From positions 1,056,001 through 1,120,000 of the forward strand of contig OY970393.1 in NCBI GenBank assembly GCA_963720465.1: a DNA stretch of 64,000 nucleotides, read 5' to 3'. The DNA comes from Methanobacteriota archaeon (GTDB lineage Archaea > Halobacteriota > Bog-38 > Methanoflorentales > Methanoflorentaceae). Of the stretch, positions 579 to 55,758 are shown piece after piece. The notes below the pieces were generated by a model, which saw nothing but the letters and a program-made list of their open reading frames with translations, was not told where the DNA came from and did not search any database. The position numbers and the translations under genes are program-made. Position 1 is the stretch's first letter; every line of letters begins with the position of its first letter.

Positions 579-3488
579 ATGCACTCAGTTGTAGATTCAA
601 TTAGCGGTCAGTTTGCGCCCCTCTTTCCCTTCACATTTTTCAATGAAATGCAGTCGCGCGTGCTACCAAGTCTCCTCACATCGGATGAAGATGTTGTCGT
701 TGCAGCGCCGACCGCATCCGGAAAGACCGTCCTTGCTGAGCTTGCGATGGTTCGCGAGCTCTCAAAGCCGCGAAGCGGCAAAATCCTCTACCTCGCACCG
801 ATGCGGGCACTCACAAACGAGAAAGAAGGCGAGTGGCAAAGACTGTTTGAGCCAATGGGATTTGAGGTTTACGTCGTTTCTGGCGAACGCGAGCTGGACC
901 CAGCAAAAGCCCGCAGCGCACACATCATCATATCGACGCCGGAGAAATGGGATTCTTCGAGCAGAAAGTACCGCACGACACACAAGTTCGTAGGAGACGT
1001 CTCGGTTATTATCATCGATGAGGTACATCTGCTCGATTCTGACGGGCGCGGCGGCGTGCTTGAGGCTTTGATTACCCGGATGAAGCGCATCACGGACAAC
1101 AAAGTCCGGATCGTTGCACTCAGCGCGACGATGCCCAACGTTCGCGAGGTCGCTCAATGGATAGGAGCCACGGAAGAGCGAACCTTTGCATTTGACGATT
1201 CTTACCGCCCAGTTCCACTCAAAGCCGACGTTTTTGGATACAATCCTGGCAAGAACAAGTTCGTAGACAAGTATATTAGACTTTATAAGGCCGTCTCACT
1301 GATCGAGCCCCACCTCGCCGGCGGTCAGGCGCTCATTTTCGTAGCTACGCGGTCTGACACGACTCAAGCAGCGTCAAAGCTCGTCGAAATCTTCGCCACA
1401 AAAAGTGCGAGGCTTACAACACAAGAGTCCGAACAAGTGGCAGCACGAATTAAGAACAAATCCCTCGGAGACGCCGTGCGCAACGGTATCGGTTTTCACC
1501 ACGCAGGTCTTGTGAAGCAAGACAGAGACCTTATTGAGGAGGCTTTCAAAGCCGGACACATCAAGATACTGGTCTCGACGTCGACGCTCGCCTGGGGTGT
1601 GAACCTGCCTGCACGTGTTGTCGTTATTCGCGACATCGCGAACGAAGCCATCGATGAGGAAACAAGCTCATTGGATCTGCTCCAGATGCTCGGTAGGGCT
1701 GGAAGGCCCCAGTATGACGAACGTGGATTCGGGTGGATTATCGCTCCACGCGACCGTGCAGAAGAATTCGTGCAGATGTTGCGGGAGGGGCCACCCATAC
1801 GCTCGCAGTTGCACACCACGCTCAGCGAGCATTTGAATGCCGAAATCAGCATGGGCACTATCAAGAGCCGTGAGGATGCCCAACAATGGTTTAGCGGGAC
1901 GTTCTATTACGTGCAACACCCGGAATCAAGTGTCTTGTTGGACGATCACGTGAACGCCCTCATCGAAAAAGGCTTCGCCGTCGAGGCACAGAATAATCTG
2001 CTTCCGACCGATCTTGGCACGCTTGCCTCGAAATATTACCTTCGCCTTGACACGGCTCGCGGATTCAAACAATTGAGAGAGGGGCCTTCAGACGAGGAGC
2101 TGCTCAACGCCGTTGCATCCGCTGAAGAGTTCATCAGCGTGGTCGTTAGGCGCAACGAACTCTCAGCGATTAAGGGCGCGCAAGCGCATTATACAGGGTC
2201 AAAGTCGAAGGTATATGCGATATTGAAGGCATACATCGAGCGCGGGGAAGTCCCAGAAGTGCTGCGCAGCGACGCGTGGCTCATCCGACAAAACGCGCTT
2301 CGGCTTCTATCGGCGCTTGAAGCGTTCCTCCTCCGTTTCAATGCACCGGAAACTGTCTTGCGTGCGAAAATTCTCGCCCTAAGACTTGAATACGGAGCGC
2401 CAGAAAAGCTGTGCCCCTTGCTTCAGCTGGACGCAGTGGGCATAAAACAAGCGACTCAGCTCTATGCGCAGGGGATCAGATCGCCGTTTGATATCACCGG
2501 TACCATGCTTTCAAGACTTGTTGCCGGCGCGCGGATAGCACAGTCAATAAGCAAGCTGCCCGAAATCGTGATTGACATGCAGTTGCCCGATTCCATAGCA
2601 TTTGGACAAGGCCTAATGTGTCACGCAACTCTAGCAAACGCTCGCGGAGGCGCACGTGTGTCGGTAACCGTGTTTGCCAACGGGCTCAAGATGCTTCGCG
2701 ATAGTCTCTATCTAGCGAATGGGTATACCAAATCAATTCCCATCGCCATCTATGGCTCTCAAAACGAACGAGTCACGTATCAAGTGCGAGTCGACCATCT
2801 CGACTGCGTTGAAGCTCCGCAGATCCGAGAGAACGAAATAATGATCGACGGACTCCCAAACGAACTAAGCGCAGCTACCAGTAACGCGGGCAAAAGACTG
2901 ATAACTACCGACAATGGGACAAGAGATCAGACGGAAGTACCACGCTTTTCTATCCCCCCTAGAGCGTTGGAGACGCCGCCCACGGCCCCCCATCACGCCT
3001 CGCGCAGGGAGAACACAAAACCGGACGAAGGGGTTTTAGACGTGCGCTCGAGATCCGTGGGGCGCTGCAAGCAATGTGGCGGCTCATTGAACCGCGCTGA
3101 AAGCGCAATAATGTGCGATTGCGGAGCAGTTTACAAACTGCCCACAGGAGCAGAACTCACAGAAAGTACTTGCAGCTGCGGGTTGCCCAAGTTCAGGCTC
3201 AAGCTTCTTGACGTTGACGTGTGCATTGACCGTCGATGCGAGAGCATGGATGACGTAATTTCCAAGCACTTCGCAACGAGCAACTTCATCTGCCCTCGCT
3301 GCCACGGTCCTCTAACCATCGTGCGCAGGAAGGGCATCATTGTGGGGTGTGCACAGTACTACGACGGATGTAAGACCGCATTTCTATTGCCTGCTAACGC
3401 TACGATCGTTGGACGGTGCGAGTGCGGGCTCCCAAAGCTGCAGTTGAAAACCAAGACTCGATGTCTCGATACCGCGTGCCGCGCGTAA
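579..3488 (+). CDS. Ski2-like (Brr2/Mer3-type) DEAD/DEAH helicase with Sec63-like region and C-terminal Cys-rich zinc-ribbon repeats
   Basis: APTASGKT, DEVH, SAT, HHAGL, TLAWGVNLP, QMLGRAGRPQYD; winged-helix motif HLNAEISMGTI; 16-Cys C-terminal tail. Confidence 0.9.
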   Translation: MHSVVDSISGQFAPLFPFTFFNEMQSRVLPSLLTSDEDVVVAAPTASGKTVLAELAMVRELSKPRSGKILYLAPMRALTNEKEGEWQRLFEPMGFEVYVVSGERELDPAKARSAHIIISTPEKWDSSSRKYRTTHKFVGDVSVIIIDEVHLLDSDGRGGVLEALITRMKRITDNKVRIVALSATMPNVREVAQWIGATEERTFAFDDSYRPVPLKADVFGYNPGKNKFVDKYIRLYKAVSLIEPHLAGGQALIFVATRSDTTQAASKLVEIFATKSARLTTQESEQVAARIKNKSLGDAVRNGIGFHHAGLVKQDRDLIEEAFKAGHIKILVSTSTLAWGVNLPARVVVIRDIANEAIDEETSSLDLLQMLGRAGRPQYDERGFGWIIAPRDRAEEFVQMLREGPPIRSQLHTTLSEHLNAEISMGTIKSREDAQQWFSGTFYYVQHPESSVLLDDHVNALIEKGFAVEAQNNLLPTDLGTLASKYYLRLDTARGFKQLREGPSDEELLNAVASAEEFISVVVRRNELSAIKGAQAHYTGSKSKVYAILKAYIERGEVPEVLRSDAWLIRQNALRLLSALEAFLLRFNAPETVLRAKILALRLEYGAPEKLCPLLQLDAVGIKQATQLYAQGIRSPFDITGTMLSRLVAGARIAQSISKLPEIVIDMQLPDSIAFGQGLMCHATLANARGGARVSVTVFANGLKMLRDSLYLANGYTKSIPIAIYGSQNERVTYQVRVDHLDCVEAPQIRENEIMIDGLPNELSAATSNAGKRLITTDNGTRDQTEVPRFSIPPRALETPPTAPHHASRRENTKPDEGVLDVRSRSVGRCKQCGGSLNRAESAIMCDCGAVYKLPTGAELTESTCSCGLPKFRLKLLDVDVCIDRRCESMDDVISKHFATSNFICPRCHGPLTIVRRKGIIVGCAQYYDGCKTAFLLPANATIVGRCECGLPKLQLKTKTRCLDTACRA

Positions 3489-10458: not shown

Positions 10459-11052
10459 CTAAAACTGATGATAAACGAGATAGAATCGTTGCAGCGCTGT
10501 GAAATTGCTCGCCAAGGCCACAAAAACCATCATCCAGCCGAGCAACGGGAACCAGATGATGTTTTCCGGGAATATGAGGCTGAGCAAAGCGACAAAGAAG
10601 ATGAGGACGAGCCTGTCTGCTCTCCCGAGCAAGCCCCGATAATTCCGGCCGACGCCAAGTGCTTGGGCTTGGGTTCCAAGGTAACTCGTCATGAGAACGC
10701 CTACAATCGCGAGCAGCCCAATCTGCCAAGCGACGTACCCACCGAGCGTAATACCGCCGAATATGAAAATATCGGCATAGCGGTCAACGACGTGGTCGAT
10801 TAGGTCACCTTGCAACGATTCGCTGCTAGAACTTCGCGCTAGACACCCATCTAATGCGTCAAAGAGTGCATTGCAGGCAAGTGCCAATATCGCCACTGGA
10901 AGCAGTTGCGCGTAGAACGCGACGCCGGCGACGACTGCAGAAACGAGGGATAGAGCGCTCAGCTGGTTTGCACTTACGCCGCGCTTGTAAAGCGCTAGCG
11001 CGATCGGATTTAAAATCCGCCCCATTCTTCCGCGGTATGTGTCAAGCGTCAT
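10459..11052 (-). CDS. CDP-alcohol phosphatidyltransferase (archaetidylinositol-phosphate synthase-like)
   Basis: DALDGCLAR...GDLIDHVVDRYAD signature; hydrophobic. Confidence 0.88.
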   Translation of the reverse strand: MTLDTYRGRMGRILNPIALALYKRGVSANQLSALSLVSAVVAGVAFYAQLLPVAILALACNALFDALDGCLARSSSSESLQGDLIDHVVDRYADIFIFGGITLGGYVAWQIGLLAIVGVLMTSYLGTQAQALGVGRNYRGLLGRADRLVLIFFVALLSLIFPENIIWFPLLGWMMVFVALASNFTALQRFYLVYHQF

Positions 11053-11560
11053 TCAAATAGGCAGTCCAGTCACATTGACCAGCGGCGAATCGCTGGAGCC
11101 AGTGTCCTTGTATGATTTCCCAGACGACTTGCGCTGATTCACTCAGCGTACCTGTCGAATCTACTTCGTACACATTGTTACCGTGCCGTGCGACGGCCTC
11201 AACCAGGATGACATCAAGGATTTCCGCTTCTACGTTTTCCTGTATCTTTTTGTCTGAAAAAGCCTTCTTCTGGAGGCGCCTGCGAAGCGCGACCGGATTG
11301 GTCCGGAGGACGATAACACGGTCGACCGAGAGGTTATGGGAGAGGTGCCCCTCAAGCACGAGATCTTCTGAAAACGGGTGCGCTCTCAGTGCCTTGAGAT
11401 CAACTACTAGACAGTCACGGTTTTCGTCCCACTCTGCGTAGTACTGGTGAACGCGAATCACTTCGTTTAAGTCCACCACCTTGAGGCCATAGCGGTCGCG
11501 GAGAATCTTGCCAATTGTGGTTTTGCCGGTGCCGGGAGTTCCTGTGAGAGCAATTTTCAT
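11042..11560 (-). CDS. Adenylate kinase, AK6/Fap7 type
   Basis: GTPGTGKTT, EGHLSH, ENVEAE. Confidence 0.85.
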   Translation of the reverse strand: MKIALTGTPGTGKTTIGKILRDRYGLKVVDLNEVIRVHQYYAEWDENRDCLVVDLKALRAHPFSEDLVLEGHLSHNLSVDRVIVLRTNPVALRRRLQKKAFSDKKIQENVEAEILDVILVEAVARHGNNVYEVDSTGTLSESAQVVWEIIQGHWLQRFAAGQCDWTAYLNDA

Positions 11561-11575
11561 AGGTCAACAAAGAAG

Positions 11576-12646
11576 TCAGGTTGTGGACACAAATTCGTTG
11601 ATGGCACCGAGAAGCATTGCATTTTGCCACGGCTGGCCGACGGTAATTCGAATGTGGGTATTGGAGCATCCACGAAACGTCTCGCAGCTTCGAACGATTA
11701 TGCCTTTACTTAGCAGGTATTCCGATACTTCGCGCGAAGTGTGTGGCGCGGTGTCAACGAAGACAAAGTTTGCTTCCGTAGAGTACGTCTTGAAGGGGAG
11801 CTTGTCGTGTAGGTACTTCCGTCCATGCGCTACCATCGACACGGTCTTTTCCAGAAAATCGCGATCTGAAAGTGCTGCAATACCCCCCTTGACAGCCAAT
11901 TGATTCACGGGAAAGGGAAGCATGCGTCTCTCGTACAAACGTGCTAGCCCCTCTGCAACCACCGCATAGCCGAGGCGCAGCCCGGCCAATCCAAAAGCTT
12001 TTGAAAAGGTTCTAGAGACCATCAGGTTATCAAAGTGATGTACGAGCTCAATGTGGCTTTGCGATGCAAATTCAGCGTAGGCTTCGTCCAGCACGACTAG
12101 CGCTTCTGTCGATCGTAGCAAGCGCCTCAGCGCTTCTTTCTTGATTGCGTTTCCTGTCGGATTATTGGGAGCGCAGATGAAGATTAGCTTGGTTCTGTTG
12201 GTGATTGCCTCGATTACACCCTCGACGTCGATTGAAAAATCGTCCGAACGCTGGACGTAGACGCACGCGCCGTGTCCCGCCTCCACGATTATTTCGTAGT
12301 ACGAGTAAGTGGGGATAGGAATAATCGCCTGATCACCGGGCACTACGATGTAGCGCACCAAGGTGTTGAGGAGATCGTCTGATCCGTTGCCGACAATGAC
12401 GCGCTCCGCTGAAACTCCGGTGTAGCGCGCGATGGCGTCCTTGAGCTCGACGTACCCAGGAGGGGGATAGACGCTTATTTCGTCGATGTGATGTTTAATC
12501 GCTTCAACTGCTTGTGGGCTCGGTCCCAAGGCGTTTTCGTTTGATCCGAGTTTGATCACCTGATCAGGACTGATGCCATAAGCTTGCGCTACGTCTTCGG
12601 CAGACTTACCTGGAATATACGTTGATGGCACGTTCAACCACTGCAA
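11576..12646 (-). CDS. hisC: Histidinol-phosphate aminotransferase (start may be GTG 12631)
   Basis: KLGSNEN, PNNPTG, DEAY, RTFSKAFGLAGLRLGY. Confidence 0.9.
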   Translation of the reverse strand: MQWLNVPSTYIPGKSAEDVAQAYGISPDQVIKLGSNENALGPSPQAVEAIKHHIDEISVYPPPGYVELKDAIARYTGVSAERVIVGNGSDDLLNTLVRYIVVPGDQAIIPIPTYSYYEIIVEAGHGACVYVQRSDDFSIDVEGVIEAITNRTKLIFICAPNNPTGNAIKKEALRRLLRSTEALVVLDEAYAEFASQSHIELVHHFDNLMVSRTFSKAFGLAGLRLGYAVVAEGLARLYERRMLPFPVNQLAVKGGIAALSDRDFLEKTVSMVAHGRKYLHDKLPFKTYSTEANFVFVDTAPHTSREVSEYLLSKGIIVRSCETFRGCSNTHIRITVGQPWQNAMLLGAINEFVSTT

Positions 12647-19871: not shown

Positions 19872-20319
19872 GCTCTTGACGCCCAAAACTGACCAGCCGA
19901 GCCAACTAATTGAACCGCCGACCCGGCTCCGAGACACGCAGACGCGCATGGATACTTTGTGTGAGATTCTGTCCGAAAGTCCAGCACAAATCTCCAGCAA
20001 ATTCAACGCGCTGCGATGAATCCAAGTTCTAGACCTCAGCTTATGCTTTGAAACTGCTTTCAACGGGCGAATTGAACAACGCATCGTCTTCATCAATGCT
20101 GTTGGCTTTACCATGTTCATCGCGTTCAACATTGTTTTTATGGTGTCGCTAGGAAGCGTCGGGTGGGCCACGATGGCGCTTAGCTGGGGACTTCTGAGCG
20201 TGCTCATTTTTGGTATGGTAGGGACTGAGGGATGGATTTCGCAAAAAGCGCACTTTTTAGCTAGGAATAAATAATAAGAGAGCTTTGATTGCAGCAGCGA
20301 CGCAAAATGGTCTAATCGC

Positions 20320-20940
20320 ATGAGATGGCGAAGTTCGACGAAGGTCGTAGGCGTACTTTATGAGGAGCGCGAAAACGCTGAACTTGAGTTACTAGGCGGA
20401 TCACAGATTACGGGTATCACCTATCTTAAAAAAGAATCAGACGACGTCAAGCTCGTAAGCGCTTCAAAATTCGACGTGAATATCCTGCGCGACACGACGG
20501 CTACCGGCGTGCTCTATCGAGATCAAACGGCAGCCGACGTGCAACTGTTGGCGGGGTCAAAGATCGTCGGCGTGCTGTATGAGGAGACGAGCGTGCCCGG
20601 GCTCAAGCTCTTGCGCGTAGCGCATACGGCGCTGAAACTCGTCAGCGGACAAGCGGTCAAGGGCCTCCTTTATCAGCAGCAAGGTGGGCCTGATGTCAAG
20701 CTTTTGAGCGACGTGAGCGATCTTTCGACGGCAGCCGGGGCACTATTGACCGGCGTGCTTCACCAAGAAAGCCAGATGGGCGCTCTGCGTCTAGTCAGCG
20801 GACAAGCGGTCAAGGGCCTCCTTTATCAGCAGCAAGGTGGGCCTGATGTCAAGCTTTTGAGCGACGTGAGCGATCTTTCGACGGCAGCCGGGGGACAGCT
20901 TGTAGGTTTTCTTTATCGTAATGAGGCCCTGAACCAATGA
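20320..20940 (+). CDS. Uncharacterised 21-aa repeat protein A1 (soluble)
   Basis: About 8 units of [IVL]-x-G-[IVL]-x-Y-x-[EQD]; stop overlaps next ATG (ATGA at 20937-20940). Confidence 0.75.
   Translation: MRWRSSTKVVGVLYEERENAELELLGGSQITGITYLKKESDDVKLVSASKFDVNILRDTTATGVLYRDQTAADVQLLAGSKIVGVLYEETSVPGLKLLRVAHTALKLVSGQAVKGLLYQQQGGPDVKLLSDVSDLSTAAGALLTGVLHQESQMGALRLVSGQAVKGLLYQQQGGPDVKLLSDVSDLSTAAGGQLVGFLYRNEALNQ
20641..20893 (+). repeat. 100-bp identical direct repeat within gene A1 (153-bp period)
   Basis: 20641-20740 equals 20794-20893 (gtcagcggacaagcggtc...gcagccgggg). Confidence 0.95.
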
Positions 20941-21815
20941 AACTTCCAGAAGATTCGTCTGTAATCACCGGAGTCCTCTACCAACACAAGGGTTCGACGG
21001 ATACACAGCTCTTAGGCGGGCTTGCGATTGGCGTCAAGTTGTTCGACGGAGTACCGATCAGCGGTTTCACTTACTGCGAAGAGAACTCAATAGAGGACAA
21101 GCTCGTCAGCGGATCGCGGGTTACGGGGATCGTGTGGCGACACGAGACCAGTGTCGATGACCGAATCCTCAGAAGTGCGAAAATAAAAGGCGTGATATTT
21201 CAGAACAAGGAGCAAGCTCACCGCGACGCAGCGCGCGAATCAGCAAACGTCGATGCCGCGCGAGTGATTCCGCGTTCGCCTCAACAAGGGCTCCTGAACG
21301 GGTCGCAGATTGTTGGAATCATCTGTCGCGACAAGAGCACGGGTGAGGAGCAGCTCACGACTGGAGCAAGAGTCGACATGAAGATTCTTAACGGAGCGTC
21401 CATTGCGGGCATCATATATGAAGGACCAGAGGGAGAGAGTATCAAGCACCTGACCGGATCGAACATCACTGGCCTGCTATTTCAGCAGCAGAACTCCAGC
21501 AGCGAAACACTCGTAGGCGATATGGCCATTTTGGGACTCATCTACCAAGAGAAAGACGCCGTTCTTGCAAGACTTGCAAACAGCTCGCAGAACGCCATCT
21601 CGGTGATCGAGACGGTCATTCTCTACATGCTGCTCATTGTTGGCATTTTGGGTCTGCTGGTTCCGGCAGTGAGTAAGCAAACCGATTTCTCACCCTTGAA
21701 TTTCCTCGCGCTTCCATCTGAAGTCTTGACTGCTCTTTTTGTCCTGATGGTGGTTGTTTCTATTATCGTCCTCGTTTACATGAGATACAAACACTCACGC
21801 ACCATCACGAGCTGA
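20937..21815 (+). CDS. Uncharacterised 21-aa repeat protein B1 with C-terminal two-TM anchor
   Basis: 8 repeat units, then IETVILYMLLIVGILGLLVP and VLTALFVLMVVVSIIVLVYMRY. Confidence 0.8.
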   Translation: MKLPEDSSVITGVLYQHKGSTDTQLLGGLAIGVKLFDGVPISGFTYCEENSIEDKLVSGSRVTGIVWRHETSVDDRILRSAKIKGVIFQNKEQAHRDAARESANVDAARVIPRSPQQGLLNGSQIVGIICRDKSTGEEQLTTGARVDMKILNGASIAGIIYEGPEGESIKHLTGSNITGLLFQQQNSSSETLVGDMAILGLIYQEKDAVLARLANSSQNAISVIETVILYMLLIVGILGLLVPAVSKQTDFSPLNFLALPSEVLTALFVLMVVVSIIVLVYMRYKHSRTITS

Positions 21816-21829
21816 GCTGCGGCACCAAC

Positions 21830-22099
21830 CGCGCTTCTTAGCGAGGTTAATAGGGCCCGACTTTTCCGCACGCGCCCCCTCAATCGCGAATCGAACGGGA
21901 GGGTTTCCTCGTCCGCTTGCATTTAATATGTCGTTACGGCGTCAGTCGCGCCGTCAGTTGAGGCCGAATCCACCCCAATCTTCATAGAGATAATTCGGGT
22001 GATCCAGTTAGACTAGGTTGGCTATTTCTTGGCGGTCACCGGCACTTCGTTGAATGTCGGAACAACTGGAGACGAAAGAATGGGAGTCTCGCTCGTCAT
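21830..22099 (-). pseudogene. Degraded GT2 glycosyltransferase N-terminus
   Basis: Across shifting frames: MTSETPILSSPVVPTFNE..AKK / IANLV*LDHPNY / KIGVDSASTDGATDAV; GT2 motifs (PxxNE, VDxxSTDG) with stops and frameshifts. Confidence 0.6.
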
Positions 22100-22318
22100 C
22101 GCGAGTGGTGACGTCTGCTCCGACAAACATGGGGGTACCCGACGACACCGGATAGAGGGCTGATATCGCGCTCTGTCACTCACTGCCTGCCCGCCACATA
22201 TACACGGCTGCCCCGATGCAAAGGAGAAACAGACCGATTATCAGGAGTTCTGCTTTAGCATCAGACGGTATGCCGTTTAGTATTTCCAAGAGCATCGTAT
22301 CACAACCTATTACACATG

Positions 22319-23419
22319 TTATTCAAGCAAAGGGATCCCCCGATAAGCAGAGGCGGCGTTCAAACGGGCGACACTAGGGGGATAACCTTCAATGAGCGAC
22401 ACCATCAGCGCCACCATATCGAGCTTTCTTTCTAGCAATCTATCGCGTTTCTTTTGCCAGTTTTCCTTTGTATGGGGGTCCTGAATGAGCTGCACCGCCT
22501 TAGCCGCGACTTCGGCTGCGGTCTTTAGGTTTAAGAGCAGCCGAAACTCGCGCTCAAGCTCGATAAAGACGCCCGTGTCACAGTCACCTACAAAAGCATT
22601 GCTCCGGATTGTCGGCGTTCCCAGAAGTGCGGCTTCGGTCGCCATAGTGTGCGTATCGGTGATGAACAACGACGCATAGTATAGCACGTCGTGTATTCGC
22701 CTGTTCGGCACGTTGAGAACGTGTTCTTTAATTTGCTTTGGAACGTCGGTTTCTGACGAAATGAACACCTCTCCGTAGGCGCTGAGCTCTCTCACGAGCG
22801 CGATCTTTTCGGCGTCGGTCAGTCTCGCGCCGAGGTCGTGCGAGCAGTCAAACGCGTTAAACCGCAGCACACTGTAGTCTTGACTCCTTGAGATGCCCAA
22901 GAGATCAAAAACGGAAGGATCAGGCGTGTAATAGTTGGGGTGTAGGTACGCGAGCTCCTTGTAACTCTGTACTTTCAGGTGTTTTGAGCCTAGCTCCTGT
23001 TTGAATGATGACGGCGTTACAAAAACATCAGTAAACTGATACGTGAGTTTGAACATCGCGTAACGCGCAGCGTCGATCGTGCACTCGCCGTCATTAAACG
23101 TGATATCGGGAACCTTGAGCAAACGCGCCGTGAAGGTCGAATAGGTACCCCAGCCCGTGGTCAAGTCAATCTTCTTCCCCTTGAGGTGTCGAAAGGCATT
23201 GACCACATCGTGCGGAAGTGACGTGTTATGTCCACACTTCACGTCGGGCGGACTCGAGAAAAGGAAAAAAGGAATGTCGAGCTCGTTTAGCAGGTCTATG
23301 GTCTCTCCGTAATCACGAGCGAGTACGAAGACCTGATTGCCGTCAACCTCAAGCGCGGCCACGATGTTCTTGTAGAAATGCACCTGAGCTGGCGTATTGA
23401 CAAAAACGGCAATTTTCAC
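22319..23419 (-). CDS. DUF354 family glycosyltransferase-like protein
   Basis: NTPAQVHFYKN, ARDYG, YKELAYLHPNYYTPD, TMATEAALLGTP; GTG start at 23419 after GGAGGT. Confidence 0.85.
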   Translation of the reverse strand: MKIAVFVNTPAQVHFYKNIVAALEVDGNQVFVLARDYGETIDLLNELDIPFFLFSSPPDVKCGHNTSLPHDVVNAFRHLKGKKIDLTTGWGTYSTFTARLLKVPDITFNDGECTIDAARYAMFKLTYQFTDVFVTPSSFKQELGSKHLKVQSYKELAYLHPNYYTPDPSVFDLLGISRSQDYSVLRFNAFDCSHDLGARLTDAEKIALVRELSAYGEVFISSETDVPKQIKEHVLNVPNRRIHDVLYYASLFITDTHTMATEAALLGTPTIRSNAFVGDCDTGVFIELEREFRLLLNLKTAAEVAAKAVQLIQDPHTKENWQKKRDRLLERKLDMVALMVSLIEGYPPSVARLNAASAYRGIPLLE

Positions 23420-23534
23420 GATGCTACCTCCTGCGTGTACGTCATTTCGCGTCTGCAACGGGGCACGGTGCTTTTGAGCGGGTCAGAGCTTGCGCCGTCA
23501 CAATCGCTGCACATCCCTCCAAGAGTCTTCATCG

Positions 23535-24086
23535 TCAAGCCTGCTCGCAAAGAACGCCGCATATTCTCACCCCACTTACAAGATTTACGTCTTCACGGCC
23601 CTCGTCTTGATATAAGAAGCCGCTAAGGGTTGCGCTTTCGAAGATTTTCTTCTTAAGAGAGTTTTCTTCTCGACAAAGTATGCCGGTTACCTGTTGCCAC
23701 GGCAGGATATGCGCCGTATGATTGAAGTCTGCGAGGAGCGTTGTTTCGCCGGAAGTCTCGTCTTGATAAATCAGACCTTTGATCCGCTGGTCACAAAGCG
23801 ATTTTTTGCCGAGAGAGACGGGGTCTCCGTAGAGTATTGCCACGATTTTCGATGCTTCGAGGATTCGTTCGTCATCCTCGGTCGTCGTCCAATAGGTGAG
23901 GCCGTCGAGCTGTAAGTCGCTCAGAATGCTCTCATCGGCGCTGTCGTCGTGGTACAGGACACCAACCACTTTCGAATTAGTCAGGAGTTTGACGTCAATG
24001 TTCAGCCCGCTCTGGAGTTTTTTTTCATCAGTCCCTTCTTCCTGATAGATGATGCCTGTAATTTTCACGCCGCTTAAGACCTTCAT
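23535..24086 (-). CDS. Uncharacterised 21-aa repeat protein A2 (soluble, 183 aa)
   Basis: MKVLSGVKITGIIYQEE...; 8 repeat units; ATG 24086 after GAAGGTG. Confidence 0.78.
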   Translation of the reverse strand: MKVLSGVKITGIIYQEEGTDEKKLQSGLNIDVKLLTNSKVVGVLYHDDSADESILSDLQLDGLTYWTTTEDDERILEASKIVAILYGDPVSLGKKSLCDQRIKGLIYQDETSGETTLLADFNHTAHILPWQQVTGILCREENSLKKKIFESATLSGFLYQDEGREDVNLVSGVRICGVLCEQA

Positions 24087-24096
24087 GGTAACACCT

Positions 24097-24909
24097 TCAC
24101 GAACTATCTGTAGTCGACCTCTCAGTGCTGTGATACCGAAGGTAGAGTAGGTACACCACAGGCACGACAATTAACGCAATAGCGATGTATGAGCTGAGCA
24201 GAGTGATATTGAATTGTTTCAATGCGATCGGCACGACAAGACCAAGAACGCCAATGATCGGCAACAGGTACAACAATATGCGCTCCGCTTTGCGAAATCC
24301 ATTTCCTGACGGCTCTTCCACCTCAGTCGCGCGGCGTGCCGCGCGACTCGGGGGCTCGATATCTCGATAGATGATGCCGATGATCCTCAGACTAGTCAAG
24401 ATGCCTTCCTCGCTGGAGGCTCGCTCTCTGTATAGCACTCCTGTCAACACCGCTTCGCGCAAGGACGTTGCAGTGACTCCCTTGTCTTCTCTATAAACCA
24501 CGCCCGTTATTCTCGAGCCGTTAAGGATTCTTGCGTTGAGCTGTGGTCCACCGAGCAGCTTCACTTCGGTGCTGCCGGCCTGTTGGTACGTAATGCCCAG
24601 CAGTTTAGATCGGCTTAAGATTGTCCGATCGGCCGAACTTCCCTCTTGGTAAATAATGCCCAGCACCTTCCGCGCGGTCAAAATGTTTTCACGAGAGGAG
24701 TCTTCATCTTGATAGATGACTCCTGTGATGTTTAATCCGCTCAAACAGGTCTCTTCACCGTTTTTCTTATCCTTGAATATGATGCCGGTGAGCTCCCCAT
24801 TATCCAGAAGTTTCACTTTGATTTCAGGCGCGTTCAGCAGAACGCCGTCTTTACCCTTAGTGTCCTGGTAGGTGAGTCCAACCACTCTCGAACGATCTAC
24901 TGCTGCCAT
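24097..24909 (-). CDS. Uncharacterised 21-aa repeat protein B2 with C-terminal two-TM anchor
   Basis: 8 repeat units, then AERILLYLLPIIGVLGLVVP and YIAIALIVVPVVYLLYLRY; GAGGT upstream of ATG. Confidence 0.8.
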   Translation of the reverse strand: MAAVDRSRVVGLTYQDTKGKDGVLLNAPEIKVKLLDNGELTGIIFKDKKNGEETCLSGLNITGVIYQDEDSSRENILTARKVLGIIYQEGSSADRTILSRSKLLGITYQQAGSTEVKLLGGPQLNARILNGSRITGVVYREDKGVTATSLREAVLTGVLYRERASSEEGILTSLRIIGIIYRDIEPPSRAARRATEVEEPSGNGFRKAERILLYLLPIIGVLGLVVPIALKQFNITLLSSYIAIALIVVPVVYLLYLRYHSTERSTTDSS

Positions 24910-25260
24910 CTAAACCTCAGTCTCTGCCGCGGCTGCTTGAACGCTCGCCAAACTTCGCCGAGAATTAACCGTCATAGTTTGCCACTGAATATGTAAGTAG
25001 CGGACTCGATAACCCTAATGTGAAGCATGCACCGATCAGTGAAGCACCAGTGATCGCAAGACGGAGGCCGGTAATCAAGCAAAGAGCGCTTGGTACAAGT
25101 GAGATTAAAACTATGTAGATCATTTTTCAAACCTCATTCTTCTTCTCCTTTTTCGGCTATATCCAGCCCGCATTCGAAGCAGTGGAAGCCTTGAACAAGG
25201 TGCGCGGGCCCATCAGCCGTGCGCTCTGCGACGAGCATAACGGGTAGCCGCGCTGAATGC

Positions 25261-25992
25261 TTACAGTAAGGCATTGAGCCGGGCTTCATTTTCGTAAACT
25301 TCAATTTCTTCAATTATTCGTTCCAGCCGCGCCACGCGCTCTACCAGCTGTTCAACCGGGTCGGTCAGTTCCCGCTTACTCTTCACTAACGACATTGTGT
25401 TATACCCATACGACTGTCCTTCGTCGAGATCCGATCTTTCCGTTGGTCGTAGGATCATCAGCTCAGCATCTTTGACCGTGTCAGCTATGGGCTTTTCGAC
25501 GAGCTTGTGCGTGCTACTTTCGAAACGCTCTTTTGCTACCTTTTCGGCACGCTCTCTAAGTTTATTGAGCAAAATATCAAATATTTCGCGTTTATGCTCT
25601 TCTTGCGCCATCGAGAGACTTTGCACGATCGTCGTAGCGCAACTCTCTAATTTCTCGCAAAGTCTATTCGGGTTATTCTGCGCCCATTTTAGAAGATCGG
25701 AGGTATAAACATCCGATTCTATGTTGCATTCCTCATCGAGTAGCTCGTCGAACGTATCTGCGCTCGAATCTGCGATCATGCGTGCTGCCTCATCTATAAA
25801 CTCGCACGTCGTATCGTGCGGCATGAACTCGAAGCCTTCTGCGGTGTGAACTGCGTATATGACTTCTGTGATCCATTCAGGCGCGATATCCTTCTTAAAT
25901 ACGATTTTATCTTCTTTTTGATGTTCGACCGTATGAAGGTTTTGCGCGATCGCATGTGCCATCTGTTCTACTTCATGTGCAATTTCGCTCAT
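25261..25992 (-). CDS. Acidic hypothetical protein, possibly phage/Ocr-like N-terminal domain
   Basis: Long ORF; APEWI..VH...MPHD..EFI..A...ESDVYTSDLLKW; C-terminal coiled coil; start taken as ATG 25992. Confidence 0.6.
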   Translation of the reverse strand: MSEIAHEVEQMAHAIAQNLHTVEHQKEDKIVFKKDIAPEWITEVIYAVHTAEGFEFMPHDTTCEFIDEAARMIADSSADTFDELLDEECNIESDVYTSDLLKWAQNNPNRLCEKLESCATTIVQSLSMAQEEHKREIFDILLNKLRERAEKVAKERFESSTHKLVEKPIADTVKDAELMILRPTERSDLDEGQSYGYNTMSLVKSKRELTDPVEQLVERVARLERIIEEIEVYENEARLNALL

Positions 25993-26505
25993 GTTCCTAT
26001 CATCCTGTCTTTTGGCTATACAGCGCATAGCTGTAGACGCGTACGTGGTTTCTCCCCATAGCCCCGACTTCAATGACACTTCTTTCACTGCCAATCACAC
26101 CCATCTTGAAGGCGCACCCGTAACGAGGACGACGGAGCTTCTTGATGCTGGAGTCGTCCCTGTTTTCTGCTTACTAGTAGAGGCTTTTCTGCAGAGTTGT
26201 TGCGTGCATCGTGAAGACTTTTTCCCCATCAGAGTGCCTCAAGACTTAACTATTGTAAAAGTATTTAAATGTTGCTTAAAATTATCAATAGTTTTAATTT
26301 ATATAAAGCTTTAAAAAAAATAGTCAAGAATTAAATTTGTTCCAACTCATGTCTGCGGCCACAGATTTTTGTCCCGTGAGAAAAAACAAAAAAGAAACGT
26401 TAGGTATAAACAAAATAACAACGATTAAGTACAAATTGCAAGTAAATAGCTACATGGCGTTTAATACGCGGTGCAATTTGTACGCAGATAATAACATGCA
26501 TCGTT

Positions 26506-27360
26506 TTGCACAGAGCCGACACCAAAAAGGAGCGGAAAGTGGACGAGCCTAACTCCGAAATAAAGAGCCAAGAAGTTGAAGAGATTCTGCGCCTCTTAGC
26601 GTGTTCTGATTTGCGAAACAATCTCGCCAAAGCACTCCGTAATGGCAAGAAAATGACGCTTTCTGAATTGGGCGAGCACGTTGGAGCTAGCTCACCGGCT
26701 TGTGTGCACGCGTTGCGAGAACTAGGAAAGGTGCACGTAACACATCAAGACGAGAAGCGCAACTACTCGCTCACTAACATTGGCGAGATAGTCACGCGAA
26801 AGTTCGAAGAGCTTAACGCCGCCATCACAACGTTATCGCAAAACAAGGAATTTTGGCTCGACCACGATTTGAGCGACATCCCGAAACATTTGCTCGATAA
26901 GATAGGGTCCCTCGCTGATTCCACCGTTCTAACAAGTACTCCCACGGATCTCTTCAAGTCTTTTTCTACGCTCTATACGCTGCTTCAAAATTCCAAGGAG
27001 ATACGCGCCATCTCCCCGATTTTCGTCGAAGATATGACGGCCCAGTTTGTCAAACTGGTAGACAAGAACATAGACATCGAACTCATTTTTACGCCCGACG
27101 TACTGGACGCAACACTAAGATCGGCGGATAGAAAAGGATTAGAAAAAGCCCTCGAATCGAATCTCAAGCTCTTCAAAACTGAGAACCAACCGAACTTTGC
27201 CTGCACTGTTACTGACTATTTCTTGATTCTCGGCTTCTTCAGGCCGGACGGAAGTTTCGACTGGTCTACCGCCCTTCTGAGTTACAGTCCTGAAGCACTA
27301 GAATGGGGACAGGAGTTGTTCGCATATTATGTCGAGAAGACAGAACCCATCATTCTTTAG
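26506..27360 (+). CDS. Winged-HTH transcriptional regulator, DUF1724/COG4742 (FilR1-like)
   Basis: LLACSDLR..L, HALREL, YSLTNIG, FWLDHDLSDIP, TVTD, GSFD, ALEWGQELF. Confidence 0.88.
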   Translation: MHRADTKKERKVDEPNSEIKSQEVEEILRLLACSDLRNNLAKALRNGKKMTLSELGEHVGASSPACVHALRELGKVHVTHQDEKRNYSLTNIGEIVTRKFEELNAAITTLSQNKEFWLDHDLSDIPKHLLDKIGSLADSTVLTSTPTDLFKSFSTLYTLLQNSKEIRAISPIFVEDMTAQFVKLVDKNIDIELIFTPDVLDATLRSADRKGLEKALESNLKLFKTENQPNFACTVTDYFLILGFFRPDGSFDWSTALLSYSPEALEWGQELFAYYVEKTEPIIL

Positions 27361-28285
27361 CAGCACTGCGTCAGACGGGGAATTCCTCTCCCAATTTCGT
27401 TTACCACCGCCACGTACGCGGCTAGCGAATGTATTTTCCTTCGTTACATTCAATCCAATGTTCCCTACGGTGTTCGTTAGCACCGTAGTGGTAGCGATAC
27501 TGTACGTCTCTTTTCTGCTTCAAGGTGTCCTGATCAGCACCTTGCTGTTAATCGCCACCTTCTTTTTGGGGATTTCCATATACAGTTTGAACAGAGTGAC
27601 AGATCTCGAAGAAGACTCAATCAATCTGCCCGACAGAGGTCAATTCTTCAAGAAAAACCGAGACTACCTGCTTTTTGCGAGTCTCGAATCAATTAACATC
27701 GCGGTGATTCTCGCTTTCTTCAGCAAACCGTCTGCAATCATCATCATTCTCTTCGCGTTCTTTATAGCGTTTTTTTACGACATAGGAACGCGCAGATTGA
27801 GACTAAAGAACACCCTGCTCCTTAAGAATATCACGATCGCAGGGACGATGACTATCGCAGCAGTGCTTCTGCCACTTGTGGTCCACACCAATATCTCATT
27901 TGTCGTGCTGATGGTTGCCTACTTTATCTTTCTCAATATTTTCATTGAGAGCGTGCTTCATGACGTCCGAGACATCGACGGTGACCGGAAGGCCGGCGTG
28001 CGGACCATCCCCGGATACCTGGGCAGGAACAAGACACGAAATCTGCTGCTGCTCCTGAACTCCACGCTTGTGGTGTGGGTTGCTTTCTCGCTGTTTCAAA
28101 CCATTTTTTACCCGTACATTTTCGTTTTGATTCTCGGCGTGCTCTACGGGTACTGGAGCATCCTACGCTTTACGAGGCCGAGCGCTACGACAAGCAGGCC
28201 CTTCTATTCGCTTGTGACCGCCAAATGGGTGATCCTGGCCCTTTATGCCACGCCATTCGCTTTGGGGTGGCTCCACATCCTTTGA
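27329..28285 (+). CDS. UbiA family prenyltransferase (true start uncertain)
   Basis: NRVTDLEEDSINLPDR and HDVRDIDGDRKAGVRTIP Asp-rich motifs; multiple TM segments. Confidence 0.85.
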   Translation: MSRRQNPSFFSSTASDGEFLSQFRLPPPRTRLANVFSFVTFNPMFPTVFVSTVVVAILYVSFLLQGVLISTLLLIATFFLGISIYSLNRVTDLEEDSINLPDRGQFFKKNRDYLLFASLESINIAVILAFFSKPSAIIIILFAFFIAFFYDIGTRRLRLKNTLLLKNITIAGTMTIAAVLLPLVVHTNISFVVLMVAYFIFLNIFIESVLHDVRDIDGDRKAGVRTIPGYLGRNKTRNLLLLLNSTLVVWVAFSLFQTIFYPYIFVLILGVLYGYWSILRFTRPSATTSRPFYSLVTAKWVILALYATPFALGWLHIL

Positions 28286-28452
28286 GTCAACGACATCCTG
28301 CTCACTCTGCCTCTGGTGTTACTATTTTTAGAAAAACATTGATATTTTTTATCAAGAATTTAAACTACTAACATGATTAAGCATAGAGATATACAATGAG
28401 AACGAATAGCAAACTTTATATTGTTCTCCATCATTGACACGCTTCGACAATC

Positions 28453-29304
28453 ATGTATATCACTACACAAAGAGGAGAAGAACTCAGCGAAACGATCGTA
28501 GAGCCACGCGTCAACGATGGCGAGCTGCTCAGACTATTGATATGCTCGGACCTGCGGAAGAAGCTCCTTCTTGCACTTAAAAACGGCACAACATCCCTCG
28601 CCGGCCTGCGCGAAGCAACAGGGGCAAGCTCAACCGCAGCAATACACGCGCTCAGAGAGCTGGAGAAAGAACGCCTCACCTTCCAAGACGGCAAGCGCAA
28701 CTACTTGCTTACAAGCTCTGGCAAGATTGTGGCTTTGCACGTGGAGAGCTTTGTACAAACGGTCAACGTGATTACTCAGTTTGGCAAATTCTGGCTTGAA
28801 CACGATTTAAGCGGCATCCCTGAAGATTCTCTCAAGAACATAGGGTATTTGCAAGAGTCGCAGGTTTTGACAAGCATGCCCACTGACGTTTTCAACGCCT
28901 TTTCGACCTTTATCACCCTGCTCGAAGACGCCAAAGTGATACGAGGCGTTGCCCCTGTGTTCACGCCAGACTTGCTTGATGTTTATGCCGAACTCGCCGC
29001 AAAAGGCATACCGATCGAGCTTGTCGTTACTCACGAAGTGCTCGAAAACATGCTAGAGCTCACAGACCGCAGCCCGCTCAAGAATTCGCTTAAGGCAAAT
29101 CTTAGACTGTTTGTGATTAAGCAAAACCCAAAAACGGCTTTCACGGTTACTGACTATTTCTTTATGGTTGGACTCTTCAGATTGGACGGGTCTTATGATT
29201 ATTCAGACGAATTGCTAAGTTATAGCAACGACGCCCTTAGGTGGGGCCGTGAGCTGTTTGATCATTACGTCCGAGCATCAAAAGAGTTCGACTTAAGACT
29301 TTAA
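28453..29304 (+). CDS. Second DUF1724/COG4742 winged-HTH regulator (paralog of 26506..27360)
   Basis: LLICSDLRKKL, HALREL, FWLEHDLSGIP, TVTD, GSYD, ALRWGRELF. Confidence 0.88.
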   Translation: MYITTQRGEELSETIVEPRVNDGELLRLLICSDLRKKLLLALKNGTTSLAGLREATGASSTAAIHALRELEKERLTFQDGKRNYLLTSSGKIVALHVESFVQTVNVITQFGKFWLEHDLSGIPEDSLKNIGYLQESQVLTSMPTDVFNAFSTFITLLEDAKVIRGVAPVFTPDLLDVYAELAAKGIPIELVVTHEVLENMLELTDRSPLKNSLKANLRLFVIKQNPKTAFTVTDYFFMVGLFRLDGSYDYSDELLSYSNDALRWGRELFDHYVRASKEFDLRL

Positions 29305-53382: not shown

Positions 53383-55758
53383 TTAGGTCGCACCGCCGTA
53401 ATAGATCACCGCACCGCCATCGTCAAAAATCTTGCTCCGAGCGTCGGTGGTGTTCCCCAAATCCACGTAGTTTATGACTGTTCCCGAAAGAAGACTATTC
53501 CCCCCGGTCTGGGCAACCTTGCCCTGTTCGATGTTAAACGTGCCGATGTAGACGTATGCGTCTGGCGGCGTTTGGTACGGTAGTTTCGGAAATTCCGTAG
53601 CGGGGTGGTACAAATCAAAACTGTCAAAGAGCGCACGACGATTTGCATCCGCATAAATGGGCAGAAGAGGGGCCCCGCCTGCCGCGCTGCCTCGAACATC
53701 AGTAAGCCACTGGCCAGCGATCACCTCCCGTTCGTTAAAGAGCGCTGCGTCGACGTCGCTATTCAGAACGAATGAGGTCGACCCCTGATGAGTGATCTCG
53801 TAGACGAAGCCGGTACTAAACAAGAACAAAACGACAAAAAATGCAGCCACCAGTTTGAGCGCGACGGCCCGGACCATGTGCCGCCGCCTGATAACGAGCT
53901 GCCCCACCGACTGAGCGATGAGCAGCCCACCCGTAACGCAAAAGGGCGCCAATAACAGCGTTGAGATGTGGAAGATTCGCGTGATGTTGATAGAAGAAGC
54001 CAATTGCGGAACGATCACGGCAACGATCAATATGGCGAAACTGGCCAGTGCCAGCGCGATGTACTCCGCGTCGAACCGCTTTCGGAAGCGGCGGATTGGG
54101 AGCACTCCGAGCCCAACGACGATCAGCAGCGCGCTGACCAGGTAAAGGGCCAGCCCGACTTCGTGGAGTGGCGACAACGTGCCAACCTGAAGGACGTCGT
54201 TCAGTGATGCGCTGTAGTATTCCGTTCTGCTCGCACTGAGCGCGGCAAAAAGAGCAACAGGCGGCGCCGCATAGAGCCAAGTCCACGCGCCGGTCTCCCG
54301 CTGTCGCCGCGCTGCTACAACGTAAATCAGCGCCAGCGCGCTGAAGTAGATCACGGCGCCGATTCCGACGGCTATTTCAATCGTTCTCGGCGTGATGGTA
54401 TGGAATATCTCGCTGAGGACCCGACCGATGGCCGCAGAGGCGGCTGAACCGACGCTGGTATACCACGCGGCGGTGAAAGCCGCAAATGACAGCACAAAAA
54501 GAAGCGAGAGCATCCGGCGTGGCGCTACGGACCGATTATCCGGTGGCCCTTGAGCTGATCGCCGCAATCGGTGCAGCGCAGGATTGTCCACCAAGAACAG
54601 CAACAGCCAAGCGATGACGATGTAGCCGAGATAGATAATCGCGAGCGCATAATGAGATACCACGAGCGAGGCGGCGAAAACGGCGAACATCGCGTACACG
54701 CGCCTTCTCTCTGCCCCTGACCGGTATTTGTCCACGATCAAAATAAGGAGCAGGACGAAGAAGAGCTCGGCGACTTCCTGTCGCGCAAGCGCCGGCATCA
54801 CGCCGAAGAACACGTTCAGAGACGAGACAAAAAAGGCGCCGAGGAAGGCGATTTTGTCATTTGTCTGCGACTGAAGGTAGACGAAAAGCCCGAGCGGTAC
54901 CAACGCGAAGATGAGAGGGTACACGATCTTAAAGAGCCATGTCACCGTTACACCCGACGTGAGCGAGAGAATCGGAGCGAGCACGGTGACGCTGGTCACG
55001 GCGTTCGTCGATCCGGGTAAGGACGCATTCCACACGCCGTTGGTGAGTACCAGGTTCGCGTTATAGAGCTCCTTCTGAATATCCCAGCCCCAGACGTTCG
55101 ACGAGATGAGCGATGCGAAGAAGAGCATGGCGATGGCGATCGCAAAAACGGCGAGCGGGTACCGCTCCTTTGGGAGAGATTTTGACGTGCCGACCCAAAA
55201 AGCCGTCGCGCCGATTATGACAAGTGCACCCAGCAGCGCGACGTTTGTGTTGTACGTATTCATCGCGTAGGTAGCGAAGATCATGATAAAGGGAACGAGA
55301 CAAAGGAAGAGAACAGAGGGCGTCAGCACACGCCCCCATTCTATCGTCACATCGTCTTCGAAGTCTCGGTCGCGCCAGTAGCTCACCGCAGCCAACAGGA
55401 CGATTATGGCGCTCATTGTGCCTACCGCCGGAAGGAGGGCGAGAGGCCGTTCGATGCCGAGCAACGGATACGCGAAGTTCGCCAAAAGCCCCGTAAACAT
55501 GCAGGTCGCGATGCTGAGGCCAACGGCGAAGAGCACCGTTTTTGTGCTGCCGAGGCAATGAGCGCGTAACGCCCGCAAAATGAGTATGCCCGGAACGAAG
55601 AGGATATACGCCACACCAAAGACGCCACGCAAAAGAGGGGGGTGAATGCCTAACGCGTCCAGCCCTATGAGCGCCCATACCACAAGCAACAAGAGGAAGA
55701 CCGCTTTGAGCGTTTCTGCGTGCTTCCAATCGTTCATTCGGAAGGGGTTAAGCGTCAT
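53383..55758 (-). CDS. DUF2206 family polytopic membrane protein
   Basis: FVPG..ILR, GWDIQKE, FKIVYP, LARQEVAELF, SHY, NITRIFH, KIFDDG. Confidence 0.85.
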   Translation of the reverse strand: MTLNPFRMNDWKHAETLKAVFLLLLVVWALIGLDALGIHPPLLRGVFGVAYILFVPGILILRALRAHCLGSTKTVLFAVGLSIATCMFTGLLANFAYPLLGIERPLALLPAVGTMSAIIVLLAAVSYWRDRDFEDDVTIEWGRVLTPSVLFLCLVPFIMIFATYAMNTYNTNVALLGALVIIGATAFWVGTSKSLPKERYPLAVFAIAIAMLFFASLISSNVWGWDIQKELYNANLVLTNGVWNASLPGSTNAVTSVTVLAPILSLTSGVTVTWLFKIVYPLIFALVPLGLFVYLQSQTNDKIAFLGAFFVSSLNVFFGVMPALARQEVAELFFVLLLILIVDKYRSGAERRRVYAMFAVFAASLVVSHYALAIIYLGYIVIAWLLLFLVDNPALHRLRRSAQGPPDNRSVAPRRMLSLLFVLSFAAFTAAWYTSVGSAASAAIGRVLSEIFHTITPRTIEIAVGIGAVIYFSALALIYVVAARRQRETGAWTWLYAAPPVALFAALSASRTEYYSASLNDVLQVGTLSPLHEVGLALYLVSALLIVVGLGVLPIRRFRKRFDAEYIALALASFAILIVAVIVPQLASSINITRIFHISTLLLAPFCVTGGLLIAQSVGQLVIRRRHMVRAVALKLVAAFFVVLFLFSTGFVYEITHQGSTSFVLNSDVDAALFNEREVIAGQWLTDVRGSAAGGAPLLPIYADANRRALFDSFDLYHPATEFPKLPYQTPPDAYVYIGTFNIEQGKVAQTGGNSLLSGTVINYVDLGNTTDARSKIFDDGGAVIYYGGAT

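Follow-up and report, generated by a model that had tools for sequence, protein, structure and literature searches.

Paired soluble and putatively membrane-anchored repeat proteins encoded beside a predicted glycosyltransferase gene in peat archaea

The stretch of DNA analysed here, referred to throughout as the window, comprises 64,000 nucleotides of the genome of a Methanobacteriota archaeon (GenBank assembly GCA_963720465.1, contig OY970393.1, positions 1,056,001 to 1,120,000 of the forward strand). Between its positions 20,320 and 24,909 lie four genes, here called A1, A2, B1 and B2, whose products are built from a shared unit of about 21 residues. The genes form two pairs, A1-A2 and B1-B2, on opposite strands, and a gene for a putative glycosyltransferase of the DUF354 family sits between the two, on the B strand and directly after B2. 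Each pair encodes one protein consisting of repeats only and one that continues into a membrane hairpin, as judged by Kyte-Doolittle windows, which detect two hydrophobic C-terminal segments in A2 and B1 only and none in A1 or B2. The genes within a pair are tightly linked: the A1 stop and the A2 start share an ATGA overlap, and 10 nucleotides separate the TGA of B1 from the ATG of B2. An earlier note on this DNA had described the four open reading frames (ORFs), their shared unit, the pairing of a repeats-only with a hairpin-ended protein and the close linkage, and in all of these respects its account holds. The features are as follows.

20320-20940, + strand: A1, an ORF of 206 residues; soluble protein of repeats only, 8 units, no hydrophobic segment
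20629-20896, + strand: tandem duplication within A1; 115-nucleotide copies, 95% identical, at a spacing of 153 nucleotides (51 residues)
20937-21815, + strand: A2, 292 residues, predicted to be anchored; 4 units, a 21-residue non-repeat linker, 4 units and a C-terminal two-helix hairpin
21585-21794, + strand: membrane hairpin of A2, residues 217-286, with Kyte-Doolittle segments at 217-249 and 253-286
22176-22295, - strand: orf39, 39 residues with one hydrophobic stretch; an ORF with tblastn conservation in relatives
22319-23419, - strand: DUF354 / GT4-like (GT-B type) putative glycosyltransferase, PF04007, third gene of the B operon; probable start GTG at 23419, 366 residues
23535-24086, - strand: B2, 183 residues from the ATG; soluble protein of repeats only, 8 units
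24097-24909, - strand: B1, 270 residues, predicted to be anchored; 8 units followed by a C-terminal two-helix hairpin
24127-24291, - strand: membrane hairpin of B1, residues 207-261, with homology to the N-terminal helices of long archaeal GT-C-like proteins

The repeat can be followed by the motif G-[IVLFM]-[IVLTFH]-[YWFC], which occurs 7-8 times per protein at spacings of 21, 31 (21+10) or 42 residues; each protein has 8 units once two degenerate units, chosen by eye, are added (GVLH at residue 145 of A1 and AILY at residue 83 of B2). The consensus of the unit is [IL]-L-x-G-S-[KR]-[IVL]-T-G-[IV]-[LI]-Y-Q-[DE]-x-x-S-x-[DE]-x-K, and at its aromatic motif position Cys, Phe, His or Trp can also occur, in keeping with a place in the core. 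The spacings of B1 and B2 run 31, 20-21, 21, 21, 31, 21, 21 and those of A2 are alike, with the addition of the mid-protein linker, such that the overall layout in all four proteins is 2 x (31+21+21+21). Because the N- and C-terminal halves align in register in every protein (for B1, residues 1-94 against 95-190 are 34% identical, E 2e-22), the domain can be described as a duplicated four-unit super-repeat of ~94 residues, and the fixed count of 8 units together with the 2 x 4 super-repeat in all four proteins fits a defined domain. In a leave-one-protein-out test, the units of any three proteins recovered 7-8 units in the fourth at E values of 1e-25 to 1e-29. A hidden Markov model (HMM) of the unit matched only these four proteins among the 15,529 stop-to-stop ORFs of the genome, with the next best at E 1.7, a test that is circular; the genome has no paralogue beyond the four.

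The four ORFs are real genes under purifying selection. Against the window copy, Nei-Gojobori ratios of nonsynonymous to synonymous substitution (dN/dS), calculated with 9 or 10 orthologues per family, are 0.11-0.19 for B1, 0.05-0.19 for B2, 0.19-0.41 for A2 and 0.17-0.32 for A1, all 34 pairwise comparisons falling within 0.05-0.41. Protein lengths are conserved among the orthologues, those of A1 are 53-90% identical, and a GAGGT ribosome-binding site lies ahead of the B1 ATG in 9/9 aligned orthologous upstream regions. B1 and A2 are collinear over their full length, hairpin included (30% identity, E 2e-38), and B2 is nearest to A1 (31%). In a FastTree phylogeny of 42 sequences, each of the four subfamilies is monophyletic (support 0.967-1.0), and with midpoint rooting the deep clades are soluble A1+B2 (0.999) and anchored A2+B1 (0.865). 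This grouping of soluble with soluble and anchored with anchored proteins indicates that an ancestral pair of one soluble and one anchored gene was duplicated as a pair, and so the gene order within the pairs became opposite only after that duplication. The four genes would represent two diverged copies of an ancestral pair, one member being a soluble and the other a membrane-anchored 8-unit beta-repeat protein.

In all 11 genomes that carry them, A1 is adjacent to A2 and B1 to B2, and the expected pairing of a soluble with a membrane-anchored protein therefore recurs, under the selection just described. The same 11 genomes all have a glycosyltransferase gene after B2, which strengthens the tie to glycan synthesis that had been suspected: it is DUF354 in eight of them and GT2 in the other three, so that the linkage to DUF354 itself recurs in part. 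The GT2 gene is next-but-one after B2 in one of these three, and two genomes have an extra GT2 behind DUF354. The convergent orientation, on the other hand, is not conserved and occurs in two genomes, the window's own included. In three genomes the five genes are all co-directional (B1-B2-DUF354-A1-A2), and in two they are co-directional with ~3 kb between DUF354 and A1; the pairs are divergent and 7-8 kb apart in two more, while each pair has a contig to itself in the two genomes that are most distant. In five genomes that are without the repeats (completeness 87-91%), DUF354 gave no match at E <= 1e-10.

The window's DUF354 protein scores 23.4 bits against PF04007 (cut-off 22) and has 1,728 detected homologues. 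Those of full length that share 46-54% identity with it (E ~1e-103 to 1e-117), among them proteins of Thermococcus, Methanocella, Methanolinea and Methanomassiliicoccus, carry PF04007, in some cases together with PF13439, the N-terminal domain of GT4; glycosyltransferase is the name given to them in some sources. A score above the gathering threshold, combined with this full-length homology, assigns the neighbouring gene product to DUF354, a family of putative GT-B glycosyltransferases. Its probable GTG start is preceded by GGAGGT. In one relative (G002, locus L028, 4195-5434, - strand), the DUF354 gene is present as three ORFs, which could reflect decay or an error in the assembly of this metagenome-assembled genome (MAG).

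The last ~65 residues of B1 and A2 follow the consensus F..t.klilY.lP..GilG..iPl.lGQyNl.lLg.YlAiP / mi.aP.iYl.y, and the hairpin of A2 matches a hairpin HMM built without A2 (E 8e-5). When a profile of B1 and A2 was run over 1.84e9 sequences, 12 proteins of 593-642 residues were matched at their N-termini (E 4e-7 to 8e-4), and a profile of the hairpin retrieved more long proteins of this type (E 1e-17 to 1e-21). The homology spans only residues ~5-70 of these long proteins, which have no Pfam match. One of them, P0052, has an Atlas model that aligns with archaeal clusters auto-named DUF2206 or 'putative dolichyl-phosphate-mannose-protein mannosyltransferase', at template-modelling (TM) scores of 0.84-0.89, and we accordingly regard the long proteins as GT-C-like. 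On the strength of these profile matches, the B1/A2 hairpin is homologous to helices 1-2 of archaeal GT-C-like (DUF2206/PMT_2-like) membrane proteins. B1 and A2 themselves, with two hydrophobic segments only, do not have the ~12 or more helices and the extracytoplasmic domain that define GT-C-like DUF2206/PMT_2 proteins. The hairpin is also found at the C-terminus of a DivIVA-like coiled-coil protein (P0082), after signal-anchor-like N-termini and before a coiled coil, and its presence on the DivIVA-like protein suggests a portable anchor for scaffold-type proteins.

A second connection with membrane proteins is seen in the relative G003 (locus L039), where a 350-residue fusion (10613-11665, - strand) joins a DUF1616 membrane part (profile positions 2-142 of 307) to at least four of the same repeat units, with an Arg/Lys-rich stretch separating the last helix from the repeats. 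The same cluster encodes a 601-residue polytopic protein that starts with a B1-type hairpin (1506-3311, - strand); the frames of both proteins contain masked (X) stretches. Also in this cluster are a polysaccharide-deacetylase Pfam match that lies below the cut-off (E 0.0013) and, read by eye, a sugar dehydrogenase and an aminotransferase.

None of the four window proteins has an N-terminal hydrophobic segment, the best 19-residue Kyte-Doolittle window within the first 30 residues being <= 0.24, which agrees with the initial impression that signal peptides are missing. In B1, six Arg/Lys residues precede helix 1, one lies in the short loop and two follow helix 2. The positive-inside rule is well established, and GT-C enzymes have cytoplasmic N-termini; from the charge distribution and this analogy we infer that the repeat domain is cytoplasmic and the hairpin N-in/C-in. 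The cytoplasmic face supposed at the outset fits with these features, namely the missing signal peptide, the Arg/Lys-rich flanks of the hairpin and its homology to a GT-C-like N-terminus.

Searches for known relatives of the repeat returned little. At E <= 1, hmmscan of the four proteins against Pfam-A gave only unrelated sub-threshold rows, the best of them SPC12 (E 0.009) on the hairpin, and LRR, pentapeptide, hexapeptide, WD40, YD, MORN, CW_binding_1, bactofilin and Kelch were not among them. NCBIfam yielded nothing for the four proteins, PADLOC no match better than E 0.029, and PHROGs only phrog_6750 to A1, with a whole-protein E value of 5e-5 that is summed over repeats and no single stretch passing. 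For the A1 and A2 profiles, hmmsearch against 177,635 PDB sequences gave best E values of 0.31 (YidC, on the hairpin) and 1.3. The repeat had been thought to lie outside known families, and the Pfam, NCBIfam and PDB-sequence profile searches bear this out: the protein family is new in the sense that no model, name or structure was found for it, a statement that rests on the missing Pfam and NCBIfam models and on database entries labelled 'hypothetical protein', with no literature search aimed at the motif. Three B1 orthologues (P0022, P0025 and P0027) carry the JGI name 'cation transport regulator ChaC'; we rejected this name, which has no Pfam or NCBIfam support and looks like an annotation error.

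An AlphaFold2 model of B1 (39-row alignment) has a mean predicted local distance difference test score (pLDDT) of 72.7, with 71-88 per 10-residue block in the repeat part. In this all-beta part each unit contributes two strands, one long (~8 residues) and one short (4-5 residues), and the hairpin is modelled as two helices at low confidence. With this model, Foldseek found no matches at E <= 0.001 in the PDB (best TM 0.12-0.14) and BFVD likewise gave none at E <= 0.001. The VIA wide search reached a best Z of ~4 for the repeat part (phage tail proteins), its list being filled by matches to the helical hairpin, and a second look with VIA gave nothing usable; residues 1-190 of B1 had no usable match in the ESM Atlas. 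The model of B2 (22-row alignment) was poor, with a pLDDT of 43.6. The idea of a new beta-repeat fold is suggested by the B1 model and not by that of B2. As the B1 model is only moderately confident, the B2 model is poor, and the fold searches were made with the model of B1 that includes the hairpin, a new beta fold for the repeat domain is a provisional prediction.

To place the family among genomes, we searched the 17 other genomes of the same genus and six of the sister genus, which together with the window's own make up the 24 genomes of the class. A B1 query gave matches in 12 of the 17, one of these (G005) through the hairpin alone inside a long frame and another (G011) being an 87-residue remnant, and in none of the six, nor in any of 17 genomes from other families of the phylum. 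A repeat-only profile matched 10/17 same-genus and 0/6 sister-genus genomes. From 5.8 billion proteins, a word-indexed search retrieved 32, all of them orthologues at >=54% identity and none meaningfully named. Among 1.84 billion cluster representatives, HMMER returned 52 proteins for the B1+A2 profile (E <= 0.001), of which 34 match by the hairpin only, two span the last units and the hairpin, and 16 match the repeat part; all 16 are members or fragments of the four subfamilies, so that the repeat was matched in this family alone. Finally, when 185,579 species were scanned, each represented by one genome, 17 loci emerged, all in peat, bog or fen MAG records. Their titles name Methanomicrobia, Halobacteriota, Methanobacteriota or Euryarchaeota archaea; in two additional records the title gives a different taxon, which we take as a binning or labelling error. 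Among genomes, the repeat is limited to one genus of Mcr-encoding peat archaea, and McrA is encoded in the window's genome. A preprint on the family Bog-38 / Ca. Methanoflorentaceae, to which the window's genome probably belongs, portrays its members as obligately hydrogenotrophic methanogens with a high abundance in northern peatlands (10.1101/2025.08.21.671631).

In a single-contig (closed) genome of the same genus, the flanks of the locus are syntenic, with DUF7524, adenylosuccinate synthetase and FprA-like genes on one side and orf277, FilR1-like and UbiA genes on the other. A1-A2 are gone, as is the stretch from DUF354 to codon ~84 of B1, and the remnants are the first 83 codons of B1 and orf39. 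A deletion as clean as this one marks the cassette as an accessory, losable unit. Among the relatives that retain it, G008 (loci L029 and L030) has two copies of the B1-B2-DUF354 operon on different contigs, both B1 proteins being 73-74% identical to that of the window, and in G001 (L027, 1688-2432, + strand) B1 is split in two by one TGA, which could likewise reflect decay or a MAG assembly error.

Some details of the locus concern gene starts and smaller elements. The longest ORF for B2 begins at TTG 24170, overlapping B1; this start was rejected in favour of ATG 24086, which is preferred by orthologous ORFs of 183-185 residues and by the family alignment. orf39, a possible further member of the B operon, lies 24 nucleotides downstream of the DUF354 stop. 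By tblastn it occupies the same position in six relatives, at 69-95% identity in four of them and 50-55% in the others, and it is still present in the sister genome from which the cassette is deleted. Tandem Repeats Finder reported no DNA tandem repeat over 20000-25200, and the duplication within A1 was detected by a separate repeat search. In A1 orthologues, the two copies of this duplication are nearly identical within a species and differ between species, a pattern indicative of concerted evolution, whether gene conversion or unequal recombination is the mechanism. A promoter and terminator scan gave nothing usable above shuffled sequences, its model being sigma-70, which is not applicable to archaea; the aligned upstream regions of B1 have no clearly conserved TATA element, and the only Rfam match was a single tRNA distant from the locus.

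Upstream of B1 and on the same strand lies a gene for an acidic protein of 277 residues (25261-26094, - strand), helical by eye and without a Pfam match, to which tblastn assigns orthologues at this place in five relatives (67-93% identity), the cassette-deleted one included. Beyond it (26506-29304, + strand), a UbiA-family prenyltransferase stands between two FilR1-type regulator paralogues, its start running into the end of the first one, and in several relatives these three genes are found in synteny next to the B1 side of the cassette. A second envelope-glycan locus (53383-56908, - strand), roughly 30 kb away from the repeat genes, consists of a gene for an 803-residue DUF2206 (GT-C-like) membrane protein (53383-55794, - strand) and an adjacent ORF of 319 residues that by eye resembles a sugar dehydratase of the GDP-mannose 4,6-dehydratase type. 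At ~57168-57620 (- strand; G000:C1:1113168-1113620), a DUF1616 match (E 1e-31) covers the C-terminal half of the profile only and contains an in-frame TAA, and may be a broken gene.

How might these proteins act? We tentatively propose, as an appreciable possibility that falls short of being probable, that the anchored and soluble paralogues together build a cytoplasmic platform, tethered to the membrane, that serves as an adaptor for the adjacent glycosyltransferase in a variable envelope-glycan cassette. The repeat domain would reside in the cytoplasm and, in B1 and A2, would be held at the inner membrane face by the N-in/C-in two-helix hairpin. Each anchored protein would join its soluble paralogue, a hetero-assembly that we infer purely. 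The resulting platform would be an accessory or adaptor subunit of the envelope-glycan synthesis cassette, and could recruit or position the otherwise soluble glycosyltransferase encoded behind B2 (DUF354/GT-B, or GT2) at the membrane, the site of lipid-linked acceptors. We consider improbable, and offer as speculation, the more specific idea that the repeat forms a new beta fold and that the hairpin, having originated as helices 1-2 of a GT-C-like enzyme family, acts as a portable docking module that plugs cytoplasmic scaffolds into the membrane glycosylation machinery. Its carriers would be the beta-repeat pairs of this locus and, in other settings, DivIVA-like coiled coils and further small proteins.

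Several observations weigh against an adaptor role. Gene adjacency alone is no proof of physical or functional coupling, and the A pair adjoins a glycosyltransferase gene only where it is co-directional behind DUF354, plus in one genome with a GT1 gene downstream. The glycosyltransferase role of DUF354 is itself the prediction of a remote-homology study, in which few of the catalytic residues were seen to be conserved and the function was called obscure (PMC4520260). The window's genome has no long hairpin-bearing GT-C-like protein on which B1 or A2 could dock: the hairpin occurs there in B1 and A2 only, and the DUF2206 genes of this genome have different N-termini. To these can be added the poor B2 model and the loss of the cassette, which is deleted in the closed genome of the same genus and could not be detected in a second one, of 90% completeness.

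This last point also bears on other explanations. The cassette's restriction to one genus, variable presence, duplication in one genome and rearrangement between genomes would suit a lineage-specific accessory that has nothing to do with glycans and serves, for example, in stress, virus interaction or niche adaptation, its adjacency to glycosyltransferase genes merely reflecting residence in a hypervariable envelope island; nor does any family match hint at a function. We find this rather unlikely, as the PADLOC and PHROGs results offer no defence or phage connection of substance, and both the DUF1616 fusion and the homology between the hairpin and GT-C-like proteins tie the cassette to envelope-glycan genes independently of adjacency. 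The same deletion, and the fact that both genera otherwise live without the cassette, would be unusual for an element of cell shape or division, and we give little credence to a membrane-attached cytoskeletal or polymer scaffold with a role like that of bactofilins or DivIVA, in which co-polymerising subunits would act in shape or division and the glycosyltransferases would be incidental. A beta-repeat domain without enzymatic motifs, the pairing of soluble and anchored proteins, and the anchoring of the DivIVA-like P0082 by the same hairpin are all compatible with such a scaffold; no bactofilin or other cytoskeletal Pfam family matched at E <= 1, however, and glycosyltransferase adjacency persists in 11/11 genomes despite the changing type of enzyme.

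A further explanation would make the repeat proteins acceptor substrates of the cytoplasmic glycosyltransferase next to them. This would resemble AIDA-I/TibA-type proteins, in which dedicated heptosyltransferases act on short tandem repeats. Each unit here has a polar loop that often contains Ser or Thr (Ser occupies loop position +8 in 12/30 units), and a soluble GT-B-type enzyme is encoded directly downstream. Yet across orthologues the loops do not all share any conserved Ser/Thr position, the invariant columns of B1 and A2 are mostly Gly and hydrophobic residues, the downstream enzyme swaps between DUF354 and GT2, and the proteins are predicted to stay in the cytoplasm, where archaeal protein glycosylation is generally rare; an acceptor role is consequently very unlikely. 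Least credible of all would be extracellular surface or surface-layer-associated proteins. Repeat-rich beta proteins in envelope clusters are in general often surface proteins, but a signal peptide or N-terminal hydrophobic segment is missing from all four, two have no membrane segment whatever, and the charges around the hairpin favour N-in/C-in.

Were the adaptor role that we favour correct, the locus would define a new protein repeat family, possibly with a new fold, would provide the first functional context for the widespread DUF354 enzymes, and would reveal a reusable two-helix membrane module common to GT-C-like enzymes across several archaeal phyla. If the hairpin were indeed a portable docking module, it would represent an undescribed archaeal coupling of cytoplasmic sugar transfer to the outward-facing steps of envelope-glycan synthesis. 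In the literature searched we found no characterisation of cell envelope biology in Bog-38 / Ca. Methanoflorentaceae, and a literature search on DUF2206 found no paper. The value of the system is limited by its confinement to one genus, its dispensability and its uncultured hosts.

Several known systems resemble parts of this one. The MORN-repeat membrane tethers known as junctophilins likewise have ~8 tandem units of 21-23 residues, predicted beta-hairpins, conserved Gly and aromatic residues, and a cytoplasmic domain held by a C-terminal membrane anchor. The MORN motif is Y-x-G-x-W...G-x-G, whereas that of the present proteins is G-h-h-Y-Q-[DE], and Pfam MORN gave no match at E <= 1; moreover, the anchor is a two-helix hairpin here and a single helix in junctophilins, and the present family is archaeal and confined to one genus. 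The CW_binding_1 choline/cell-wall-binding repeats and the clostridial CROP repeats are alike in that units of ~20-21 residues are interspersed with long units of ~30 residues, in their beta-hairpins and in their Gly and aromatic residues. These repeats are extracellular and bind ligands via aromatic residues; the window proteins have no Pfam match to them, no signal peptide and no fold match.

Bactofilins (PF04519) are also cytoplasmic, membrane-associated beta-repeat proteins, and they scaffold envelope-synthesis enzymes. Bactofilin windings consist of three short strands, and the B1 model has instead one 8-residue and one short strand per 21-residue unit, with neither a Pfam nor a fold match to bactofilins. 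The archaeal GT-C-like proteins of ~590-640 residues share the hairpin of B1 and A2, although B1 and A2 are without the polytopic core and the long proteins are without repeats. DUF1616 membrane proteins are joined to the same repeats in one relative; the four window proteins have no DUF1616 part, and the window's genome has five separate DUF1616 matches elsewhere. The protein family is new, but in biological terms it probably supplements a type of process that is already known.

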